A DNA stretch of 41,446 nt from a virus (lineage: Duplodnaviria; Caudoviricetes). The position numbers and the translations under genes are program-made. Below the pieces are notes generated by a model, which ran no database searches, was not told the DNA's origin, and saw only the letters and a list, made by a program, of their open reading frames with translations. Below are positions 1,013 to 24,508 of the stretch, in pieces. Where the stretch lies: positions 1 to 41,446 of the IMG/VR virus record IMGVR_UViG_3300024275_000016; one strand, given 5' to 3'. Within the stretch, counting starts at the first letter, position 1; each line of letters opens with the position of its first letter.

Positions 1013-1576
1013 CTATCGCCAGTCCGAGTGCCGGCCGGCGAACTGCTCGCGCCTCTTATTGGTGACCTGGACGTAGATCATGGTGTTCTGGATGTTGGAA
1101 TGTCCCAGATGGTCCTGGATGGCCACAATATCGGTGTCATGGGCAGACAGGTAGGTCCCACACGAATGCTTCAGCGCATGCATGTGGGCCCTCTCAGGAG
1201 CGATGTGCGCTTTCGCGCAGTAGTCCTTCATCAGCTGGTCAAGGCGCGATCGGGAGACGCGGCCGTGCTGCCGGGTGGTGAAGAGCGGCCCTGGCGCCAT
1301 GCCCCGTATCCGGAGCCAGGCGCTGATCGCCAGGCGCTCCGACCGCACCAACGGGAACTCGCCCGAGTTCGATCCCTTCAGCCGGCGGATCATGATCCGC
1401 TGGGCCTTCTCCCGGTAGTCGCCAATCTGGATCATCCCCAGCTCGCTGGCGCGCAGGCCACGGTGGTACGCCAGGCGAAACATGGCTGTATCCCGGGGCG
1501 ATTTGATGACCGCGAACAGGCGATCGATCTCTTCCTCGGTCAGGTATTCGGGGATTGTCTTAACCTTGCGTTTCAT
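1013..1576 (-). CDS. tyrosine recombinase, FimB/FimE/Xer-like, catalytic domain only
   Basis: 187 aa; RDTAMFRLAYHRGLRASE (Arg), RRLKGS (Lys), HMHALKHSCG (HxxK/R), LGHSNIQNTMIY (His, Tyr). Confidence 0.92.
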   Translation of the reverse strand: MKRKVKTIPEYLTEEEIDRLFAVIKSPRDTAMFRLAYHRGLRASELGMIQIGDYREKAQRIMIRRLKGSNSGEFPLVRSERLAISAWLRIRGMAPGPLFTTRQHGRVSRSRLDQLMKDYCAKAHIAPERAHMHALKHSCGTYLSAHDTDIVAIQDHLGHSNIQNTMIYVQVTNKRREQFAGRHSDWR

Positions 1577-1880
1577 CCTTCAATTCTGCTCGTTCTTTGG
1601 ATTCTCCCTCTTGCAGTTGCGCCGGACCAAGGGCTGGAGCCAACTCCGCCAGCAATGGCCTGAGCTCGGGACCCTTCATGCCCGAGTGGCGCGCGATCGC
1701 AAATTGCAGCGATAGCAGCTTCAACCGGTTCGCGTCATTGCCGTTGATTCGGGACAGTACCTTCAGCGCCATATTCGCTCGCCCATTGGCGTTGTCGCTG
1801 CCCGTTGTAAAGTAATCCTTGATTGACTCGAGCGCCTGGGGCGCCAGATCATTCAGTGCTTTCGATGCTTCGGTATCCAT
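1560..1880 (-). CDS. hypothetical protein between array and recombinase
   Basis: 106-aa ORF; ATG directly follows the last array repeat, which supplies AGGAG; overlaps the recombinase start. Confidence 0.7.
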   Translation of the reverse strand: MDTEASKALNDLAPQALESIKDYFTTGSDNANGRANMALKVLSRINGNDANRLKLLSLQFAIARHSGMKGPELRPLLAELAPALGPAQLQEGESKERAELKDETQG

Positions 1881-2340
1881 TCTTCAGTTCTCCTTTTCCT
1901 TGTATCGAATGCTCCTTCAGTTCTCCCCGCGTCTGATTGCACACCGCCTTCAGTTCTCCCCAAATCGATTGCTCCCGCGCGCGACGATCGAGCATCGGGA
2001 AAATCTGGCGACCTTCAGTTCTCCTCGGCTATTCCCCAAATCGATGCTCTCTCAGTGCGCCGCAGCGACCTTCAGTTCTCCTCCGCGTCTGCTCACGACT
2101 GCGCCCTTCAGTTCTCCTCGTTCCGTTGTTCCAAATGCTACAACGCGCACGGATTCTCCCATGCGAATGAGATCAAGCCCTTCAGTTCCCCTCGCCAAAT
2201 TCACAACGCAGCGCGACCTTCAGTTCTCCTCGCCCTTATCCGCTCTGAGGACCTTCAGTTCTCCCCGCCCTTCCCAGAAAGGAGGAACCATGCCTTCAGT
2301 TCTCCTCAATTCTTGCAGTAGCACCACCTTCAGTTCTCCT
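1881..2340 (-). CRISPR. atypical CRISPR-like mini-array, 11 short repeats (minus-strand consensus RGGAGAACTGAAGG)
   Basis: CCTTCAGTTCTCCY on + strand starting at 1881, 1914, 1947, 2012, 2069, 2105, 2179, 2217, 2252, 2293, 2327; intervening unique segments mostly 19-27 nt (three longer: 43, 51, 60 nt); begins 2 nt after the stop codon of the Cas12f-like gene. Confidence 0.8.
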
Positions 2341-2342
2341 CG

Positions 2343-3461
2343 CTATTCCCCGAATCGATGCTCCAGCTCGCGGATCGCCGCGCCGGCCTTCGTGGCCTGC
2401 TTCCGTTTGCGGTCGATTTCCCGCTTAACGGCACGCTCCGTTCCGGCATCCGCCAGGTCTGCCTCCGTGTGGACGTTCATTGCCAGCATATCGCCTTTAT
2501 CCTTCAGCATTTGTGTGAAGCGAAACGCCGGCCAGTCCGCATTTTCCAGCCCAACCACTGTCAGATCCCCTATCCCCTGCCCCTTCAGCCAGTCGATAAT
2601 CTCTCGAGACCACTGGTGCAGCCAATTCGTGAGCCAGCCGTCCCAGGTCATGTTGGCGAGCGTCTGACGCTTGCTGCGGGCTGAACCCTTGCGCCGGCCG
2701 ATCTGACACAACACCCGGCGCCGTATCGCATCCCACTCCTGTTTCCGCTTCAATAGCGTGACCAGCCGGCCGGTGAAGTCCCGGGACTCGAATTCCGTCC
2801 GCAGCCACAACCTATTGTTTTGTCCAATTGGGCCCAAGGTGGCCTTACGCTGGCCGAACGTGCCAAATTGTACCGCTATGGGGTAGGCCAGCCGGACTAT
2901 GACCTGGCGCCGTTCCGGCTTGACGACGATCGCGGCCTTGCGAATCGATATCTTCCCGGCCGCCATGTCATCCAGCAGGGGGCCCTGCCAGTCTTTGACT
3001 GTCCCGCACGCGAGGGGAATTTTAAGCCACGCCCCGTCCTCACATTTCGCTGCCTGTGCCTGTAATTCAATGACATAGCGGTCACCGTCTCGAGTCAGAC
3101 GGACCCCTGATTCCTTCCGGTCCTTGTTGCCGCGGATGGTGAGGGCGGCTGTGGTTTTCCACTCAGGGAGAGGGGCGCCGGCCAGGATGCGTTTGGCGTG
3201 GCGCCGCCAGGTCATCAGAACTTCGCGTTCTGCGGCCGTATAGGCATTGCTGCCCAGTTCCATCTTCTCGTCGTGCCGGATCCACCGGGTCACATCGTGA
3301 GGGATGTTTTTGGTGGGATCGACGCAGAGATTTTTGGATTCAGCCCAGAGCGCGCGCAGGAACAGGTTCCGGTAGCGTGCTGCCTGCCATGAGAGGTCCT
3401 TGAGGCGCTGGAAGAGTTCCCAGTCTCCCCGCAGATCGAGTTTAACGGCGAGCACGCGCAT
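2343..3461 (-). CDS. Cas12f/TnpB-like RNA-guided protein, predicted nuclease-dead and C-terminally truncated
   Basis: Blocks resembling Cas12f1 (recalled alignment): DWELFQRLKDLSWQAARYRN, LGSNAY..WRRHAKRILAGAPLPEWK, LLDDMAAGKISI..VIVRLAY, NWLHQWSREIIDWLKGQGIGDLTVVGL, WPAFRFTQMLKDKG. RuvC-I GIDLG reads LGPIG, RuvC-II MEDL reads VVGL, no CxxC ribbon or RuvC-III. Start ATG 3461 (372 aa) or GTG 3485. Confidence 0.8.
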   Translation of the reverse strand: MRVLAVKLDLRGDWELFQRLKDLSWQAARYRNLFLRALWAESKNLCVDPTKNIPHDVTRWIRHDEKMELGSNAYTAAEREVLMTWRRHAKRILAGAPLPEWKTTAALTIRGNKDRKESGVRLTRDGDRYVIELQAQAAKCEDGAWLKIPLACGTVKDWQGPLLDDMAAGKISIRKAAIVVKPERRQVIVRLAYPIAVQFGTFGQRKATLGPIGQNNRLWLRTEFESRDFTGRLVTLLKRKQEWDAIRRRVLCQIGRRKGSARSKRQTLANMTWDGWLTNWLHQWSREIIDWLKGQGIGDLTVVGLENADWPAFRFTQMLKDKGDMLAMNVHTEADLADAGTERAVKREIDRKRKQATKAGAAIRELEHRFGE

Positions 3462-3489
3462 ACGCTCATGCTCGCCGTCTGCCACTGCC

Positions 3490-3625
3490 TCTGACGCTGT
3501 ATGCGGCACCACGACCGGAGAACTGGGGCCGTCGCCGTTGCCGGCGTGAAGAGTGCCTCGTGCGAGATTACGAGGAGATTCAGCCGAAGCAGTAGAATCG
3601 GACATTCCAATCCAACTGTACGCTA
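3490..3625 (-). ncRNA. putative tracrRNA/scaffold RNA
   Basis: Intergenic; minus strand has CAGTTCTCC (3525..3517) complementary to repeat GGAGAACTG and CTTCA (3551..3547) complementary to repeat TGAAG; several hairpins including a GCAA tetraloop; ends approximate. Confidence 0.6.
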
Positions 3626-4370: not shown

Positions 4371-4624
4371 TGTTGGTATCCAGTGCACTCGGGGCACGGT
4401 GAGACGATTCCCTCGATTTGTGAGACGATGACCCGGGCGCCCGGCACGTCCTCCCCATCGCGCAGGGCCTTGCGGATCGCGGCGTAATCCGGCGAAGTCT
4501 TCACCAGCCCCGCTGCGGTAATGGCCGCCTGGTCGGTGATTTCGATGGCCTCGTAGCGGCTGAGAGCCAGACCCAGATTCTCGGCCAGTCGGCAGACTGC
4601 CTCGTCTTCGTTGAAGGGGCTCAT
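4367..4624 (-). CDS. Gp157-like protein (short)
   Basis: PDYAAIRKALRDGEDVPGARV resembles the Gp157 C-terminal motif; adjacent to the annealase. Confidence 0.6.
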   Translation of the reverse strand: MSPFNEDEAVCRLAENLGLALSRYEAIEITDQAAITAAGLVKTSPDYAAIRKALRDGEDVPGARVIVSQIEGIVSPCPECTGYQQ

Positions 4625-5499
4625 CGGCCCCTCGCTTCGCGTTTCTGCAGATCCATCTTCATTGCGGCATAGCAGGACCGCGCCTCTTCCAGCCCTTCCG
4701 GAGTCTCCTGAAATTCGGAAGCGTGCCGAACTCCGAACTGCCCCAGCATCGCGTAGTAGGTCCGGGTGAAAGAGATTGCGGTGTAGCGGCGCTTCAGCTC
4801 CGCGAAGGCATCCAGACGCTTAATGCGTTCGGCGTCCAGGGAGTATTGAAGCTGCTCCTCCACCGTGGGCTGTTCGTCTTCCGGCGCGTCCACATACTCG
4901 TATTCCACTTCCTGCGTCTGCTCGATGAGGGCGGCGACGGGCTGCGGGCCGCGGGTCATGGCGGCGATCTTCGCCTGGGCCACCTCCTGCGCGGCGGCCG
5001 CCGATCCCCTCAGTGCCGTGCCCATTTCCTCTTCCGTGACTACCCCGTTTATCGCAAAGCTGCGTTTGAGTGCCAGGACCTCGGCAACCTTGGAAATCAT
5101 CGCCGAAGGGTACTGCGACCACACCGGCCCCGGCTTCTTGTATTCGGAGTAATACGCTTCGCAGGTGATGGCATGGGTGCGGTCCTTGCGCCACACGGAG
5201 CACGTCGCCTTGACCGGCACGTTGCGGTCATCCCGCTCCACCCGCGTCTCCATGCCATCAAACTGCGGGTGCTCGTTGGCCACCCGGAGATACCCGTCAC
5301 GCGAGGCCATGATGATCGATTTCTCTGACACGAAGTAGATCTCCTTCAGGAACGGATCCAGGCCCGTGGACCGGCAGACCTCCAGGAACATGCGGAGTTG
5401 GGCGTCCGTCGCGCCCCTGGCCACCGTCTGCTTGATGACGTTGACCATTTCCGGCTGGTCATAACGGCTGGAGCTGGATAGTGCGAGTGCGGTAGCCAT
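4621..5499 (-). CDS. bet: phage single-strand annealing protein (Red-beta/RecT family)
   Basis: FLEVCRSTGLDPFLKEIYFV, SRDGYLRVANEHPQFDGM, WSQYPSAMISKVAEVLALKRSF. Confidence 0.88.
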   Translation of the reverse strand: MATALALSSSSRYDQPEMVNVIKQTVARGATDAQLRMFLEVCRSTGLDPFLKEIYFVSEKSIIMASRDGYLRVANEHPQFDGMETRVERDDRNVPVKATCSVWRKDRTHAITCEAYYSEYKKPGPVWSQYPSAMISKVAEVLALKRSFAINGVVTEEEMGTALRGSAAAAQEVAQAKIAAMTRGPQPVAALIEQTQEVEYEYVDAPEDEQPTVEEQLQYSLDAERIKRLDAFAELKRRYTAISFTRTYYAMLGQFGVRHASEFQETPEGLEEARSCYAAMKMDLQKREARGR

Positions 5500-13489: not shown

Positions 13490-13965
13490 AATTCCTCTTT
13501 ACTGAGGCCGAATAACACCTGGTCCTCGAGTTTGCCGTGTTTCATAAAACTCCCGGGGTTCGTACCGTATTGCGTCATCCCCGCCCGCTGTACCAGCTTC
13601 AGAGCCAGCCGGGCGTACGCCGGGATGGCGCCCGTGATGCGTCTCGCTGGCGTATTCTGAAACATCCACTCGAGGGCCCCGCGCAGGATGACGTGTCCGC
13701 GTGTCTCGCGCCTGGGAAGCAGGATGATATGGCCTTCCCAGCAAATCATGCTCTGCGGCAAAAACGTGAACAGACCGACAAGTGACTCCCGCTCCCAGAC
13801 GGGGAGGTACACGATGCGCGGGTCATCGTTCGGCTCGAACGTCTCAGGGTCTCCGGCATAGTCGTCCCCAATCCATGGCCAGATGCGAGGCAGCGTGTAG
13901 ATCCCGCGCACCAGGCGCAGGTTGCGAGTGCGTTCAAACCTTATTCCGGCACCGGCCATAGGCAC
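13474..13965 (-). CDS. GNAT-fold phage protein (P22 gp14/DUF2824-like)
   Basis: CWEGHIILLP, ALEWMFQNTPARRITGAIP, SFMKHGKLEDQVLFGLSKEE; typical position before the ejection genes. Confidence 0.7.
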   Translation of the reverse strand: MPMAGAGIRFERTRNLRLVRGIYTLPRIWPWIGDDYAGDPETFEPNDDPRIVYLPVWERESLVGLFTFLPQSMICWEGHIILLPRRETRGHVILRGALEWMFQNTPARRITGAIPAYARLALKLVQRAGMTQYGTNPGSFMKHGKLEDQVLFGLSKEELCPVS

Positions 13966-14375
13966 ATGGTGATGAGCGGGTACTCGTTGTTGTTGTAAAG
14001 CACGAGCGGCTGCAGGGCCTGAGATCCCTTCTCCATCACCTGCGCGAATTCCTTGGACGAGACCAGCTTCAGCGCCTTGCGCAGGCCCAGCTGCGGGTCG
14101 TCGTAGATTACGCCGGCGCTTTGAATCTTGACCGGCCGCTCCGTGTTGAAGTCCGCGGACGGGCTGGGGCCCATCGTGTAGCAGGCCTTTCCGGACTGCA
14201 GCTGGAATTGCTTCTGGTCGATGATGTAAACCGCCCTATGCTGTGTACTCATCTCACCGAGCAGATCGTTCAATACGCCTAATGCCGTCGCGGACTCCTC
14301 AGGGTTCGGTAGCTGCCCGTGCCGTAGTTCTCCCGTGGCCCTCATGGCGCTGTTGATCAGATCCTGTACCGTCAT
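13941..14375 (-). CDS. N-terminal half of head-tail adaptor paralogue (stand-alone)
   Basis: Aligns to the N-terminal ~140 aa of 23100..23786 (MTVxxLIxS, DFxTxRPVKIxSAGV, EKxxQAxQPLVLY) and stops at WPVPE. Confidence 0.8.
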   Translation of the reverse strand: MTVQDLINSAMRATGELRHGQLPNPEESATALGVLNDLLGEMSTQHRAVYIIDQKQFQLQSGKACYTMGPSPSADFNTERPVKIQSAGVIYDDPQLGLRKALKLVSSKEFAQVMEKGSQALQPLVLYNNNEYPLITMCLWPVPE

Positions 14376-15388
14376 GCTGACACCTCCGGCGGGTCTTCAA
14401 TGGCCAGGTCATTCGAAGCGTTCAGCCCCCCGATCGCGGTCATGGCGTCCTTCGCGAGGGCTTCCTGGATTACGGAGTCGCGCCCCTGCTCGATGGCCAG
14501 TTGCGCTGCCAGCGCGTACCGCAGGGCTTTTTCGTACCCCGGGGGGAAATTGATCTCCTCATCGAGACTCGAGAACTCCGTGAGCAGCCGCCACACCCAC
14601 AGTTCCAAAAAGTTCACTGACGGGCCGGGCGGCGGGGTGGTAATGGGGATGTCGATCACATCCTCGGCAAGCCCGAGGGTAAAGTCGAAAAACTGGTCGC
14701 CCGGGGATATGTCATAGATGCCGACCCGCAGGACGCCCGACAGCAATGCCTGGTAGAGGTCGAACAAGCTGGCGGGCGGCACCCGGAACCAGCCAGTCAC
14801 CGCGAAGGGGGGCATGTAGGCCGGGCTGGGGAATCGAGGAGGGCCGCCGGGATAGATGGCATTGTCGTCGGTCTCCCCGAACACTCCGGGGAAGCCCATG
14901 AAGGTATCTATTGTGACGTCGGAGCTATTCAGGCGGTACGTGGTGGTTTCTCCCATGTAGCCGCAATTGACGGGCGTCCCGAAGACATCCAGAAAGCCGA
15001 AAAAGAGGTTCTGCCCGCCATCGAAGTCGAAGTCCCCGGGCTGCGGGGTGCTGCGCAGGTAGTAGAAGTTACCGGCACCGAACTGCGCGACGTAGACCGG
15101 GTTGGGCGAGCCCGAGTCTCCGTCATAGAGTGTGATACGAAGGTTGGCCGCCCCGAGCCCTCCCCCCAGGAGTCCCGCAAAATCGATGCCCGCGAGGTCG
15201 TCCGCGATGATGGTCAGCCAGTTGGTTCCCGCGGGCGTCCACCCCTTGAACAGGCGCGCCGCCGAAATCTGCTGGACCAGCCTCTGCCCGTTCGATCCCA
15301 CCATGTCGATAATCAGCCCGCCCATGACGCTGAACGCAGGCGGCAGCAGGCCGATGCCAGGGCTGGTCTGGGTGTCAAGGTTGCTCAC
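14372..15388 (-). CDS. unknown beta-rich domain fused to C-terminal half of head-tail adaptor
   Basis: Ends LELWVWRLL..FPPGYEKALRYALAAQLAIEQGR..GGLNASN..EDPP, matching the C-terminus of 23100..23786. Confidence 0.75.
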   Translation of the reverse strand: MSNLDTQTSPGIGLLPPAFSVMGGLIIDMVGSNGQRLVQQISAARLFKGWTPAGTNWLTIIADDLAGIDFAGLLGGGLGAANLRITLYDGDSGSPNPVYVAQFGAGNFYYLRSTPQPGDFDFDGGQNLFFGFLDVFGTPVNCGYMGETTTYRLNSSDVTIDTFMGFPGVFGETDDNAIYPGGPPRFPSPAYMPPFAVTGWFRVPPASLFDLYQALLSGVLRVGIYDISPGDQFFDFTLGLAEDVIDIPITTPPPGPSVNFLELWVWRLLTEFSSLDEEINFPPGYEKALRYALAAQLAIEQGRDSVIQEALAKDAMTAIGGLNASNDLAIEDPPEVSA

Positions 15389-16719
15389 AGTTCCCTCACG
15401 CCTTCCTTCCGGATGGAATCGTTAGATTGCTCGAGCTCCCCCATGGCCTGGTTTGCCTGCTGCTCCACGACCGCTGGATCACGTCCGTACTCCTTGCATA
15501 GCTCTCTGGCCAGGCCCATCACCAACGCCCGGAGGTAGACCGGGGGGAAGGTCGCCGCGTCCGTCAGGGCATCGAAATGCCACATCTGCCTCCACACCCA
15601 CAGGTCCAGCCAGATGCCCGTGGGCGTGCCCAAAGCCGGAGGGATGACGATAGAGCAGGTGGCGCTGACAGTGGAAGTGGCGCCGCCGCCGCCGATACCA
15701 ACGGGGGTTCCGGGAATGATGAACGTGCCGGGGGAATTCTGGTTGTGGTACTCCGTTGTGATCCAGTTGGCGGAAAGCTCGACGTTCAGGATATGCAACT
15801 CATCGACGTTGCCCGTTTTAAATCCGATATCAAAAAACTTGGCTACCCGCCCTGTAGTGGAACCGCCGTTATCGGCTGTCCAGCCACCGGATACCGCCGT
15901 GCTGCCATCACTGTAAACCCGGCCAGTTGCCGCCGGTGGAGTGCTCTCTGTCCCTGCCACATAGTGCCAGCTTCCGTTCGTGATATTCGTGGCGGTGGTT
16001 GCGACGGTCTCGCCCGCTCCGTTCGTTGAGTAAATTTTAAACTTCCCGTCCACGTCCGTATAAAACACGCATCCAAACCCGTCCGCACGGCGTGGATCCC
16101 ATATCGGAAACATTCCAGTGGTCTTCACCCATGCCGTGCATGAAATCTGGCCGAAAGGCTGCTGCGCGGGAATTGCGAGATTCTCACTGCTGGCAGCGGT
16201 GAAGGATTGCCCGTTGCCAATCTTTCCCGCCGTCTGAGTTGAGAGGTTGACCGTGCTGTGATAGCCGTGCGAGGTCGAGTCGAGCGCCTGCGCGTTGCTC
16301 GCTTCGTTCAGGTGGTAGACCGCGACGAACTGGGATCCCCACACCGCCTGGGAACCGAACGCCGCGTTCGCCGCGGGCTGGGTGATGCCTCCGCCAGCCT
16401 TGTACCAGACGTAGATCGTCACGTCCGATGCCGTAAGGACGTTGACGGGAACCCAGATCTCCGCAGAGGCTAAAGAGGGGTTGGCGTTTTGAGCCCAGGT
16501 AACGATCTCGCACGCCAGTTGAGAGGCTCCGGCGCTATCGGATGAGAAGCGGATATCCCCGCCATCGGACTGCGCGGCATTGCTCCCCCCTGCCGTCACC
16601 ATTTCCGCGGGGAGACACGCTGCCGTGATTAAGACAGGGAATGCCGTCTGGTCCGCCGGGACCTGTCCATGCTGGACGACCAGGGCGCACTGTCTTGTCC
16701 ATCCCGTTGGAAATGCCAT
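15385..16719 (-). CDS. DUF2341 + LamG/concanavalin-like protein fused to adaptor C-terminal half; probable receptor-binding protein
   Basis: AQSDGGDIRF, VTIYVWY, AVYHLNE, WHYVAGT, VDELHI, WITTEYHNQNSP; tail LDLWVW..FPPVYLRALVMGLARELCKEYGR. Confidence 0.75.
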   Translation of the reverse strand: MAFPTGWTRQCALVVQHGQVPADQTAFPVLITAACLPAEMVTAGGSNAAQSDGGDIRFSSDSAGASQLACEIVTWAQNANPSLASAEIWVPVNVLTASDVTIYVWYKAGGGITQPAANAAFGSQAVWGSQFVAVYHLNEASNAQALDSTSHGYHSTVNLSTQTAGKIGNGQSFTAASSENLAIPAQQPFGQISCTAWVKTTGMFPIWDPRRADGFGCVFYTDVDGKFKIYSTNGAGETVATTATNITNGSWHYVAGTESTPPAATGRVYSDGSTAVSGGWTADNGGSTTGRVAKFFDIGFKTGNVDELHILNVELSANWITTEYHNQNSPGTFIIPGTPVGIGGGGATSTVSATCSIVIPPALGTPTGIWLDLWVWRQMWHFDALTDAATFPPVYLRALVMGLARELCKEYGRDPAVVEQQANQAMGELEQSNDSIRKEGVREL

Positions 16720-21343: not shown

Positions 21344-23103
21344 TACTTGCCTACCTTCGCGGTGATATCGGCCCCCAGCCACGGGCCGTTGTCCGTGCCC
21401 TGCTGGGTGATGCGGAACACCCTGCCGCGGGCACACCCCAGGCGCCACCACTGCACCCGCTTCAGGAAGGCGCCAGTGGCCCCCCCGGTTGCTGTGCGCG
21501 GCGTGCTCCAGGTGTGCCCGTAGTCGTCGCTGGTTTCCAAGGTGAAGCTGGGCTCATCTTCCGCCGTGCCGGCCTCGCGGTCAAGGAAGAGGCGGGAGAA
21601 GAAGAAACGCTTGTTGTCGGCGGCCACGTGCGGCGTGGTGCGAATGTAGCGGATGTCCGTTCCGTCATCGTCCGGGAAGTCGAAGGACATCTCGTAGATT
21701 TTCCCGGTGGTGCGATCGCCAACGAAGTGCCGCGGCTGCAATTTCTCGCCTTCCCCCACCGGCAACAGTCCGGTATAGGCGTGGCACCTCCCGCGGAACT
21801 GGTGCAGTTCCTGGGCGTCGAGGGCGCCCTCGAGCGAGCCCCACTCGTGCCAGAAGCCCGTTGCCTCGTCGTATACCCAGGTGACCCCGAGCGGGGTGTC
21901 ATCGTCGGCTAAATCCGCGGTCGGAAAGGTGAGTACCCAGAACGAATGCCTGTCGATAACTACCGGATAGCCGATGGCATCGTCCACCCGTTTGTACGTG
22001 CGCCATACCTGCTCGATCGCCGGCGTGGACACCGGCTTAGGGACGAACCCCTGCGCCTGCCAGGCTGTCAGCGCGCCGCGGGCGTCACCGCCCAGCCAGT
22101 AGACGCCGCCGGGCAGCTGCGACAACGACCAAGTGGCCACGCAGCCCTGGTGCATGAAGGCTCCCTTGTCGCTCGCGAAGGGCGAGTTGGAATCCCCGGA
22201 GTCCCGATATACCTCTGAGGTCTGCCGGCCCATCACGTAGAGTTCTTCATGGTCTGCGATGATACTGGCCACCGAGTCCGGGTAGCCGTCTTTCACGAAA
22301 AAGTCTCCGGCCTCCCAGATCAGCCCGTTATTGGGGGTGCAGAAGCGCACGATCTTGCCGTCAATCCCGTAGTTCCCGGTTTTTGGTTGCTGCGCGATGA
22401 AATATCCGTCGAGATATGCACCCGTCACCGCCACCAGGAATTCGGTGCCGCTGTACTCCTCCGCGGTCCCTCCCGTTGCACCGAGGAGTCCGGCGGGGAC
22501 GTTGAGTACCGCGCTTGCCGGTGTCGTGTCGGTCGCCGGCATGAACGCGATAATCTTGACGAGCTGCAAAGTGAACCCGGTTCCGCCGCCGGTGATGAGC
22601 AGGTAGCTGCCAACATCGGCTTCCGTGAATGGGGTCAGTACGGAACTGATGACGGTATTATTGACGGCTGAGATTGCGAGATCAGTGTAGGTGCCGATCT
22701 GCAGTGGCGGCTGAACCATGGCCGTGCCATTGGCCACGAACCCCTTGCCCGCGGAGACCACGAATAGCTGGTTGCCGTTGGCGAACATCTGCACCGGCGT
22801 GTGGTCGTCGTCGTCGCCAATCTCGTTATCCGTGACCGGGGAGGTCGCGGTGCCGTCCGCGAAGATCTCGTACAGTTTGCTACCGCCCGCGGCAAATAGA
22901 CGGTCCTCTCCAGCCCAGAGGCCTCGGACGGGGGCTGTCGGGAGCGTACAGAACAGCTTCAGCCCGGGGCGCGCCCGCAGGATGGTCTTGTTGGGCTCCG
23001 TGCCGGTGTTCGCCTCAACAAAGCGGTTCAGCGACTGCTGGCACGCCACGTTGATGGAGCTGTGCTGGTAGCTGCCTCCGATGAATCCCTGAAATTCACT
23101 CAT
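21343..23103 (-). CDS. tail hub / packaged-DNA stabilisation protein (P22 gp10-like)
   Basis: 586 aa; RPGLK, YLDGYFI, TWVYDEATGFWHEW, SDDYGHTWS, WWRLGCARGRVFRI. Confidence 0.85.
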   Translation of the reverse strand: MSEFQGFIGGSYQHSSINVACQQSLNRFVEANTGTEPNKTILRARPGLKLFCTLPTAPVRGLWAGEDRLFAAGGSKLYEIFADGTATSPVTDNEIGDDDDHTPVQMFANGNQLFVVSAGKGFVANGTAMVQPPLQIGTYTDLAISAVNNTVISSVLTPFTEADVGSYLLITGGGTGFTLQLVKIIAFMPATDTTPASAVLNVPAGLLGATGGTAEEYSGTEFLVAVTGAYLDGYFIAQQPKTGNYGIDGKIVRFCTPNNGLIWEAGDFFVKDGYPDSVASIIADHEELYVMGRQTSEVYRDSGDSNSPFASDKGAFMHQGCVATWSLSQLPGGVYWLGGDARGALTAWQAQGFVPKPVSTPAIEQVWRTYKRVDDAIGYPVVIDRHSFWVLTFPTADLADDDTPLGVTWVYDEATGFWHEWGSLEGALDAQELHQFRGRCHAYTGLLPVGEGEKLQPRHFVGDRTTGKIYEMSFDFPDDDGTDIRYIRTTPHVAADNKRFFFSRLFLDREAGTAEDEPSFTLETSDDYGHTWSTPRTATGGATGAFLKRVQWWRLGCARGRVFRITQQGTDNGPWLGADITAKVGK

Positions 23104-23786
23104 GCGGGCTGTTGTGGGGGAGCCGGAGGAGGTGGCGGATCTTCCTGCGCCGCGAAGTTGGCAATATTCAGACCGGAGACTGCCCCCAGCGACTTCTGCG
23201 CCTCGGTGATGACAAGCGGGGAAGGCTCGCGTTCGTATTCCGGCGCCAGGTCCACCGCCAGGTTGTAGCGGATGGCCTTGAGGTATGCCGGCGGCAGATC
23301 GACGTCATCGTCGAGGGCGAACGTCGGCAGATCCAGCCACATCACCAGTTCCAGCGTGGTTGTGCTGAGCTTGGGCACGGGGTTTAGCTGAATCTTCGCG
23401 AGCGGCCAGTCGTTGTCTATGTACAACACCAGCGGCTGCTTCGCCTGCGCTGATTTCTCGGGGATACTCGCGAACATCTTGGACGTGACCAGGGCCAGGT
23501 CGGTGCGCAGTTCGTTTTCCTGGATGACGCCGGCGCTTTCGATCTTGACCGGCCGTCCAGTATCGAAGTCGCCTCCGGTCCCTATCGTGTAGACCGCCTG
23601 GCCCGCCGTAAGAGGGAAGGTCTCCGTCCTCTTCGTGTAGACCAGAGGATGCAGGGCACGCCAATTGTCGATCAGCGTGTTCAGCGTGATCAAACCATCG
23701 GTCAGCTCATCGACGTTAGGTGTCTCGCCCGGCTGCCCGACGTTGATCAGCCGGAGGCTTGAGGTAATGAGTTCGGTGACCGTCAT
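23100..23786 (-). CDS. head-tail adaptor (P22 gp4-like), copy 2
   Basis: Paralogue of 23783..24508 (LRL, YTIG, RPV.I, LELxxW, LPxxYxxAIxYNLAV); synteny. Confidence 0.75.
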   Translation of the reverse strand: MTVTELITSSLRLINVGQPGETPNVDELTDGLITLNTLIDNWRALHPLVYTKRTETFPLTAGQAVYTIGTGGDFDTGRPVKIESAGVIQENELRTDLALVTSKMFASIPEKSAQAKQPLVLYIDNDWPLAKIQLNPVPKLSTTTLELVMWLDLPTFALDDDVDLPPAYLKAIRYNLAVDLAPEYEREPSPLVITEAQKSLGAVSGLNIANFAAQEDPPPPPAPPQQPA

Positions 23787-24508
23787 GTGGGCATCCCCGT
23801 GACGTAGTTGAATGAGCCGCCCCGGCCGCCCCCCGTGCCGAAGTCTGCCGAGGGGACCGCCGGCGAGGGGGCGTTGTTGCCCTTCACCCAGGCCATCGTG
23901 CGCCGGGCCGTGGCCAGCACGTTGGGTCGGATCGGCGTGCCGAATTGATCGTTCAGTTGCACGGCGAGGTTATAGGCGATCGCATTGGCATAACCGAGGG
24001 GCAGCGAGACCGCGGCGGCCTGCGAGGGGAAAGACGATAGCTGCTGCCACGTGAACAGCTCAAGGTCATTGGCCATGGTGGGGTAGCCCCACAGGTATAG
24101 CCGGGAATTCGGGAAGGCGCAGTCGTTGTACAGGTCGGTCGGCACGGACGTCGGGATCACGGTCACACGCCGGCGTGACCACTGTGTGTCTGTGAGCAGG
24201 TTCAGGGGAAGGTGAACCTCGCTCACACCCAGCAGCACCAGGTTGGCCTGGGTGATGCGAACCGGACGCGGGGCAATGAAGTCCGCGCCGGACGGCCCGA
24301 TGGTGTACGAGGTCTTTGACGGACTCAGGTTGTAGCGGGCCGCCTGGATGGTGTAGATCAGCTCGTCCTGAATCGTCCACGAGCCCAGCATGCGGTTGAG
24401 GGCGTCGAACGCATCCGCGAGTTCGGAGGTACTCGCGGTGCGCCCGGGCGCCCCCAATATGCCGGCCAGGCGCAGGGCCGGGTACAGCAACTCCGTCGCT
24501 ACCGACAT
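23783..24508 (-). CDS. head-tail adaptor (P22 gp4-like), copy 1
   Basis: ALRLAGILG..DALNRMLGSW..LPLGYANAIAYNLAVQL; between coat and gp10-like genes. Confidence 0.75.
   Translation of the reverse strand: MSVATELLYPALRLAGILGAPGRTASTSELADAFDALNRMLGSWTIQDELIYTIQAARYNLSPSKTSYTIGPSGADFIAPRPVRITQANLVLLGVSEVHLPLNLLTDTQWSRRRVTVIPTSVPTDLYNDCAFPNSRLYLWGYPTMANDLELFTWQQLSSFPSQAAAVSLPLGYANAIAYNLAVQLNDQFGTPIRPNVLATARRTMAWVKGNNAPSPAVPSADFGTGGGRGGSFNYVTGMPT

Follow-up and report, generated by a model that had tools for sequence, protein, structure and literature searches.

Genes and features at the locus

The window, i.e., the whole stretch of DNA analysed here, is an entire virus record of 41,446 bases. Portal, capsid, terminase, head-closure and DNA-ejection genes (PHROGs scan of 39 ORFs), a set that we take to be P22-like, identify it as a tailed phage. 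The following features, all on the minus strand, make up the locus and its surroundings:

2343..3602, minus strand: gene of a Cas12f1-like effector, predicted to be nuclease-dead, probably of 419 aa from the ATG at 3602; the folded part starts at about the Met at 3461
3481..3595, minus strand: predicted tracrRNA-like scaffold, within the in-frame 5' extension of the effector gene
3570..3578, minus strand: anti-repeat segment A, with 9 bp of complementarity to the mini-repeat's 5' part
3547..3552, minus strand: anti-repeat segment B, 6 bp (one G-U) with the last 6 nt of the repeat
2838..2840, minus strand: position of the RuvC-I catalytic Asp, here Thr (T223); T in 45 and V in 7 of 54 alignment rows
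2553..2555, minus strand: position of the RuvC-II catalytic Glu, here Val (V318), by hhalign and MAFFT
2352..2447, minus strand: predicted basic C-terminal helix (residues 354-385) in place of the zinc ribbon and the RuvC-III motif
1881..2342, minus strand: array of 11 repeats and 10 spacers; repeats of 14-16 nt with the core AGGAGAACTGAAGG and 0-1 mismatch
1577..1590, minus strand: a twelfth, degenerate repeat with 2 mismatches, abutting the start codon of the recombinase gene
1560..1880, minus strand: conserved four-helix partner of 106 aa and of no known family, present in 18 of 18 loci
1013..1576, minus strand: tyrosine recombinase of 187 aa, catalytic domain only; a neighbour rather than a conserved part of the module

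Four sequencing runs that matched the locus came from soil metagenomes, and no relative was found in the GTDB genome scan or among cultured phages. Related loci were collected from IMG/VR (10 loci) and from JGI metagenomes (12 loci; 27 of 64 parts); they include duplicates or near-duplicates (L018, L021 and L007, as well as L003/L019, L012/L016 and L005/L020). No Cas1 was found in any of five related records, two of which are complete. Elsewhere in the window, a Bet/RecT annealing protein is encoded 1 kb upstream of the effector (4621-5499), and RecT-like genes are located near the effector in five other loci. Candidate recombinase sites were observed as a 20-nt inverted repeat at the start of the record (1-61) and as a pair of 17-nt direct repeats just downstream of the recombinase gene (891-907 and 967-983). 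Five ORFs (13941-16719 and 23100-24508) represent a paralogue expansion matching phrog_12985, an unknown virion family.

Predicted fold of the effector and loss of the catalytic triad

Residue numbers refer to an alignment (A1) in which residue 1 is the codon at 3506; its 54 rows include the window protein twice (P0001 is the protein itself) and exclude the fragments P0042, P0048 and P0056. The effector falls in a family of 56 close homologues (40-100% identity), and a profile search returned 163 proteins at E ≤ 0.001. Profile matches to AsCas12f/SpCas12f1 had E-values from 8e-7 to 2e-5. When the effector was compared by hhalign to 16 RuvC-bearing Cas12f1-like proteins (probability 99.7%, E = 2.5e-26), the alignment stopped at effector residue 347, just before the zinc ribbon of these proteins. 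The AlphaFold model (pLDDT 84.5) matched 8j12_A in Foldseek (E = 4.9e-17) and was aligned by VIA to 9i8y_A (Z 19.9, rmsd 19.6, 338 aligned), 8j12_B (Z 19.8, rmsd 6.0, 325 aligned) and 8dzj_B (Z 18.9, rmsd 2.5, 182 aligned). By sequence, profile and comparison of the modelled structure, the effector is nearest to Cas12f1 and has a compact REC-WED-RuvC fold, in agreement with the original prediction, which had described REC/WED-like blocks as retained. In a tree of 76 of 149 proteins (quick method), the dead clade was separated from the RuvC-bearing set with 99 SH-aLRT, and no closest active ancestor of the dead clade was identifiable in this tree. A sister clade of dead Cas12f-like proteins (P0109-P0165) has shorter, unconserved tails.

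MAFFT placed the RuvC-I catalytic Asp on T223 (A-T-L-G as compared to V-D-L-G); hhalign gave another RuvC-I register, and still none of the 54 rows had D or E in columns 220-227. At column 318, the position of the RuvC-II Glu, E was found in two and D in four of the 54 rows. None of the 53 near-full-length close homologues contained the motifs G-x-D-x-G, CxxC or N-A-D-x-N-A, all three of which are carried by nine distant matches, and none of the 53 had the C-terminal four-cysteine zinc ribbon. The D-E-D triad of RuvC is thus missing (T223, V318 and a RuvC-III motif that is gone), and the loss is family-wide. The absence of all three catalytic positions had been part of the original prediction; the hhalign and MAFFT alignments and the scan of 53 homologues bear it out, and structure-based comparison by VIA and Foldseek likewise gave a Cas12f1 fold, with no intact triad in the alignments. 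The predicted three-strand RuvC-I sheet and the bridge helix are still present in the effector model.

The further proposal that a new basic helix replaces the zinc ribbon held in part. A C-terminal helix of 32 residues is predicted, with a net charge of +3 to +8 in all 54 rows, an invariant R358 and near-invariant A377 and R379. The helix is not wholly new, as MAFFT aligned its distal half with the RuvC-III helix. VIA reached effector residues 376-379 as compared to 396-403 of As, Sp and OsCas12f (ranges, not residue pairs), and stopped at effector residue 348 when dCas12f (9N9C) was used. Alignments and models led us to infer a deletion of the zinc ribbon together with a lengthening of the RuvC-III helix, with the distal half of the basic helix probably representing the old RuvC-III helix.

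The minus-strand ORF ending at 2343 was found intact, as originally described. Its dN/dS was 0.078-0.193 in six of six homologue pairs and 0.07-0.35 over the C-terminal helix in the four computable pairs (rough values, as dS is near saturation), showing no pseudogene-like decay. Sequencing run X6 contains a gene 97% identical to the window effector gene over 652 bases; the 16 changes that affect the folded part among 40 of 145 difference rows were all synonymous. These comparisons indicate that the effector is under purifying selection and is therefore no pseudogene. Overall, family-wide loss of the triad, low dN/dS, synonymous changes and retention of the guide-RNA parts argue, at the sequence level, for the earlier claim of selection for binding without cutting.

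Mini-repeat array and spacer content

The array begins right after the effector stop codon, and its last repeat doubles as the ribosome-binding site of the 106-aa partner gene. The window spacers are 17, 17, 18, 19, 20, 22, 25, 41, 49 and 58 nt long; outside the array, the same strand has one 2-mismatch repeat (at 1577) and four 3-mismatch matches. Among 16 characterised loci, seven have arrays with 36-37-nt repeats and nine, including the window, have 14-17-nt or mixed repeats. The array of L004 contains both full-length and mini repeats, and that of L008 contains worn 5' repeat halves. Median spacer length was 22 nt in mini arrays (n = 107) and 35 nt in full arrays (n = 41), calculated from 148 unique single spacers of 163. 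In the long array units, remnants of full repeats may survive as worn 5' halves. The effector gene's last codons (2342-2363) recur at 21 of 22 bases in the 3' half of spacer 7 (2028-2049) and resemble the end of spacer 8; these copies are possibly either worn 5' halves of full repeats or a duplication of the gene end.

Contigs from run X6 join the repeats differently and have 28 other letters between two repeats. Array content thus changes while the effector gene stays 97% identical, which fits changing targets. As to the origin of new mini units, our guess is either that host Cas1 acquires them and they are then trimmed, or that phage Bet/RecT generates them by recombination. Searches for targets gave no match of the spacers within the window above shuffles, only matches with E ≥ 0.2 when three arrays were compared to cultured phages or plasmids by blastn, and repeat matches only when arrays were compared to five related records each. 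Exact IMG/VR scans with three of the 10 window spacers returned 0, 0 and 4 matches and no convincing target; the four matches were ruled out, as they represent generic ribosome-binding sites (18-21 of 25 matching) with no shared flank.

Several other repeat and spacer arrangements were observed. Spacer 2 of the window (2268-2292), read as its reverse complement, gives a strong ribosome-binding site followed after 5 nt by an ATG. In L001, lone repeats occupy gaps between phage genes, 1.5-3 kb upstream from the effector (at 1810, 2026, 2754 and 3419), some of them shortly before start codons, and the array contains a 120-aa ORF with a putative HTH-like product; in L015, a further mini array is located upstream of the effector and runs on the other strand (1701-1964). 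Repeat-pattern scans for orphan mini arrays (the one of GTDB over 39 of 64 parts) recovered known loci only, and the 24 repeat-richest other loci were ruled out as protein-coding or tandem repeats. A cluster of approx. 67-nt REP-like repeats with the scanned motif was seen in Terriglobus roseus (L118, 6433-7260), with no effector nearby.

A predicted tracrRNA-like scaffold within the effector reading frame

In 12 loci, two segments of the scaffold pair with the repeat, one with its last 5-8 nt and the other with the preceding 4-11 nt, so that the paired stretch is exactly the mini-repeat. Both segments co-vary with the repeat across eight repeat classes (e.g., CCATGA/TCATGG as compared to CCACGA/TCGTGG). 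The pairing score was 13.6 for cognate pairs (12 loci) as compared to 8.9 for 124 pairs from other classes; the cognate pair topped its row in 9 of 12 loci, and at most 6 of 300 shuffles matched the cognate pairing in 9 of 12 loci, with weak results in the other three (14, 14 and 31 of 300), the anchors and windows of this test having been picked after inspection of the sequences. RNAalifold identified compensatory changes in 12 of 33 scaffold pairs (five loci) and, in nine loci, a hairpin of 5 pairs surrounding the short anti-repeat. Segment B is a candidate for a short repeat/anti-repeat pseudoknot. Cas12f1 is described as having long and short (5-7 bp) repeat/anti-repeat duplexes (PMC11246509), and the predicted pairing gives the scaffold the same two duplexes, i.e., those of a Cas12f1 tracrRNA. 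A GNRA-capped hairpin insert in the scaffold (3533-3546) shows compensatory changes in L011, L013 and L001 and is absent from shorter scaffolds.

The scaffold forms an open stretch of the effector's reading frame in all 15 loci, with a start codon just upstream of it, while 22 of 30 other frames contain stops. The phase is the same in 13 of 15 loci (L005 is mis-anchored and L010 differs). A purely non-coding 5' extension was rejected on account of this open frame. Because the scaffold lies in an open in-frame extension in every one of these loci, it is probably dual-coded, with the effector gene starting at 3602; this ATG is likelier than the start at 3461 noted originally. In L004/L007 and L006, an array rather than the scaffold is located directly upstream of the effector, and a motif search detected no scaffold equivalent in L004. 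A scaffold motif scan returned seven loci, none with effector or partner, Rfam gave no match, and no clear promoter or terminator was seen.

Partner protein and neighbouring recombinase

A helical protein of 93-120 aa is encoded after the effector or inside the array in every locus that has downstream sequence (18 of 18; three others break off too early, and two duplicates were not counted). Its family, with 57 homologues, is similar in size to that of the effector. Pfam gave no match at E < 0.01 in 17 members, and PHROGs, NCBIfam, PADLOC, Foldseek PDB/BFVD and ESM Atlas provided nothing usable. The partner model (pLDDT 64) has approx. 85 folded residues, and the N-terminal helix was acidic in 15 of 15 proteins. 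Effector and partner identities are correlated (rho 0.66; 0 of 2000 permutations), a correlation confounded by descent.

The recombinase gene has the same orientation as the effector gene and overlaps the partner gene. A recombinase (59% identical) was found in one of 20 other loci, L015, many of these loci being short, and four of five related records have longer integrase frames (337-418 aa) away from the effector; the recombinase was thus rejected as part of the module. RNA polymerase, the 106-aa protein and the recombinase had all been proposed as partners recruited by the C-terminal helix. We found nothing in favour of RNA polymerase (no sigma-factor gene is located beside the effector), and the rarity of the recombinase speaks against that version; judged from sequence, only the 106-aa protein is a plausible candidate.

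Proposed mode of action and alternative explanations

We are confident that the effector is nuclease-dead and binds, in one way or another, under RNA guidance, and consider it probable, with moderate confidence, that it acts as an RNA-guided DNA roadblock, binding without cutting. In such a system, the predicted tracrRNA would be derived from the 5' end of the effector's own gene and the short guides from the adjacent mini-repeat array. Guide RNAs would be expressed and processed, and a mini unit (approx. 15-nt repeat and 20-nt spacer) would already have the size of a mature crRNA; if the tracrRNA is excised from the effector mRNA, less effector would be made, which might provide feedback. The effector would assemble as a dimer, as in Cas12f1, its complex would bind DNA in a PAM-dependent manner, and the output would be repression, silencing genes of competing mobile elements or of the host. 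The acidic helix of the partner would dock on the basic C-terminal helix of the effector. The roadblock reading draws on the fold, catalytic loss, purifying selection, array, co-variation, partner co-occurrence and spacer turnover, all as seen in sequences, and for the blocking itself on analogy with V-C, V-M and TldR. Spacer turnover favours shifting targets (e.g., rival elements) over fixed regulation; as no target was found, the target might also be RNA and the output something other than repression.

The dead effector could alternatively serve as an address label, with the approx. 100-aa partner providing the output, as sigmaE does for dCas12f; we regard this recruitment as possible but rather unlikely, with an output that would be transcription activation or the bringing in of a host or phage machine. 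A partner present in 18 of 18 loci, with a family of 57 proteins matching that of the effector in size, would fit such a role, as would the correlated identities (subject to descent) and the pairing of an acidic partner helix (15 of 15) with a basic effector helix (54 of 54); in dCas12f-sigmaE, the C-terminal domain of the partner is reported to bind the truncated RuvC (bioRxiv 2025.06.10.658880). However, the partner has neither a Pfam match (E < 0.01, 17 members) nor a fold match (model pLDDT 64), its approx. 85 folded residues are too few for a sigma factor, and the role of a chaperone, clamp or inhibitor would suit it just as well. Action at the RNA level, i.e., control of translation or processing by binding to repeats before phage genes or by guides against mRNA starts, appears improbable. 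The repeat has the purine-rich make-up of a ribosome-binding site and is found right before the partner and recombinase starts, L001 has its four lone repeats between genes, and spacer 2 of the window is antisense to a strong ribosome-binding site and ATG; yet spacers of this kind are not enriched (2 of 148 as compared to approx. 1.0 expected), and no part of the fold is better conserved than the lobe for DNA recognition (rmsd 2.5 over 182 residues).

That the effector is still a nuclease, with an active site rearranged from other conserved acids, is very unlikely. Near-invariant E238 (51 of 54 rows), D243 (51 of 54) and D324 (50 of 54) could supply such a site, and rearranged RuvC sites are described as common in TnpB (PMC10691335), but D324 falls on the Asn of the N-W motif in the hhalign alignment, E238 and D243 belong to strands that come later and are remote from the strand-1 position (predicted secondary structure), and both the zinc ribbon and the RuvC-III Asp are missing. 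We give slightly less credence still to RNA-guided recombination, in which the effector would steer the adjoining tyrosine recombinase: co-orientation, overlap with the partner gene, the degenerate repeat before the start codon and the 59% identical recombinase in L015 would suit it, whereas occurrence in one of 20 other loci (many short) and longer, non-adjacent integrases in four of five related records argue against it. A decaying relic of a CRISPR locus, to which irregular unit lengths and worn repeat halves might point, is extremely unlikely given purifying selection, compensatory RNA pairs, repeats trimmed to the paired part and spacer turnover.

We tentatively put forward, as a broader proposal that is rather unlikely to hold in full, that these loci form a distinct phage class of programmable DNA binders, with a tracrRNA dual-coded in the effector frame, whole arrays of approx. 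15-nt repeats that consist of ready-sized crRNA units and gain spacers without a phage Cas1, and an orphan four-helix partner whose docking on the remodelled RuvC end yields a new RNA-guided output beyond blocking. A binder of 370-420 aa with a scaffold of approx. 115 nt and guide units of approx. 35 nt would represent a very compact multiplex CRISPRi tool.

Comparison with known systems

The window effector resembles Cas12f1 (AsCas12f 8J12/8DZJ, SpCas12f1 9I8Y and OsCas12f) in fold, size and predicted long plus short tracrRNA pairing, and part of its family shares 36-37-nt repeats with approx. 35-nt spacers. It differs from Cas12f1 in lacking the catalytic residues and the zinc ribbon, as well as in having a dedicated partner, mini-repeat arrays, a phage as host genome and no Cas1 (five of five records). 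Moreover, the tracrRNA of Cas12f1 is described as located between gene and array (PMC7229846), whereas the tracrRNA-like element of the window is upstream, within the effector ORF. An IS200/IS605 TnpB or TldR, which would have an omegaRNA at the 3' end of its gene and no CRISPR array, was ruled out, as the array directly follows the stop codon and NF040570 scored 19 bits against a cut-off of 100.

The dCas12f-sigmaE system (PDB 9N9C) shares with the window a dead Cas12f whose RuvC site is partly lost at the C-terminal end, as well as a partner gene. Conversely, 9N9C lacks the C-terminal helix and aligns only as far as effector residue 348, and dCas12f-sigmaE has a single chimeric guide, a lost array and a sigma factor, while the window has a putative dual guide, made up of an array and a separate anti-repeat element, and an unrelated partner, in a phage. 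No sigmaE gene with a C-terminal extension is adjacent to the effector, the neighbours being the 106-aa orphan and the recombinase. A repression role has been proposed for an array-associated dCas12f cluster (Hoffmann et al., Nature 2026, PMC13472631), with which the window family may overlap. Array-associated Cas12 branches with altered catalytic sites (V-U43, V-U44 and V-U24) have been described by Altae-Tran et al. (PNAS 2023, PMC10691335), where V-U40-43 lie near Cas12f1; the window effector is possibly among the V-U43/V-U44 branches. As the array finders described in that paper required repeats of at least 22 nt, mini arrays would have been missed, and arrays below standard CRISPR-finder limits are probably under-counted.

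For Cas12k, truncated units with the approx. 13-nt 3' end of the repeat (the tracr-paired part only) and a 17-nt spacer have been reported (bioRxiv 10.1101/2021.02.06.429022, Hsieh and Peters). The likeness is that only the tracr-paired part of the repeat is kept, for a dead Cas12; Cas12k, in contrast, has one fixed att-site guide per transposon, whereas the window family has whole arrays of 10-26 units that turn over. No TnsB, TnsC or TniQ gene was found among the 39 window ORFs (PHROGs), and the VIA Z of the Cas12k fold was approx. 12 as compared to approx. 20 for Cas12f1. The proposed likeness to Cas12m (V-M) and TldR lies in RNA-guided binding to DNA, by which transcription is blocked and no cut is made; such blocking has been shown for V-C and V-M (PMC12669027). 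The fold of Cas12m is more distant (Z approx. 12 as compared to approx. 20 for Cas12f1), and TldRs are TnpB-derived.

Dead Cas12f proteins and single truncated repeat-spacer units were thus already known separately, and we found no published description of a dead Cas12f combined with a phage, a dedicated partner, an in-ORF tracrRNA and whole mini arrays. The family represents a natural series from full to mixed to mini arrays, in which array shrinkage and later spacer change become testable. By analogy, the effector would work like Cas12m, TldR or dCas12f, yet it belongs neither to Cas12f1, given its missing triad and zinc ribbon, nor to dCas12f-sigmaE.
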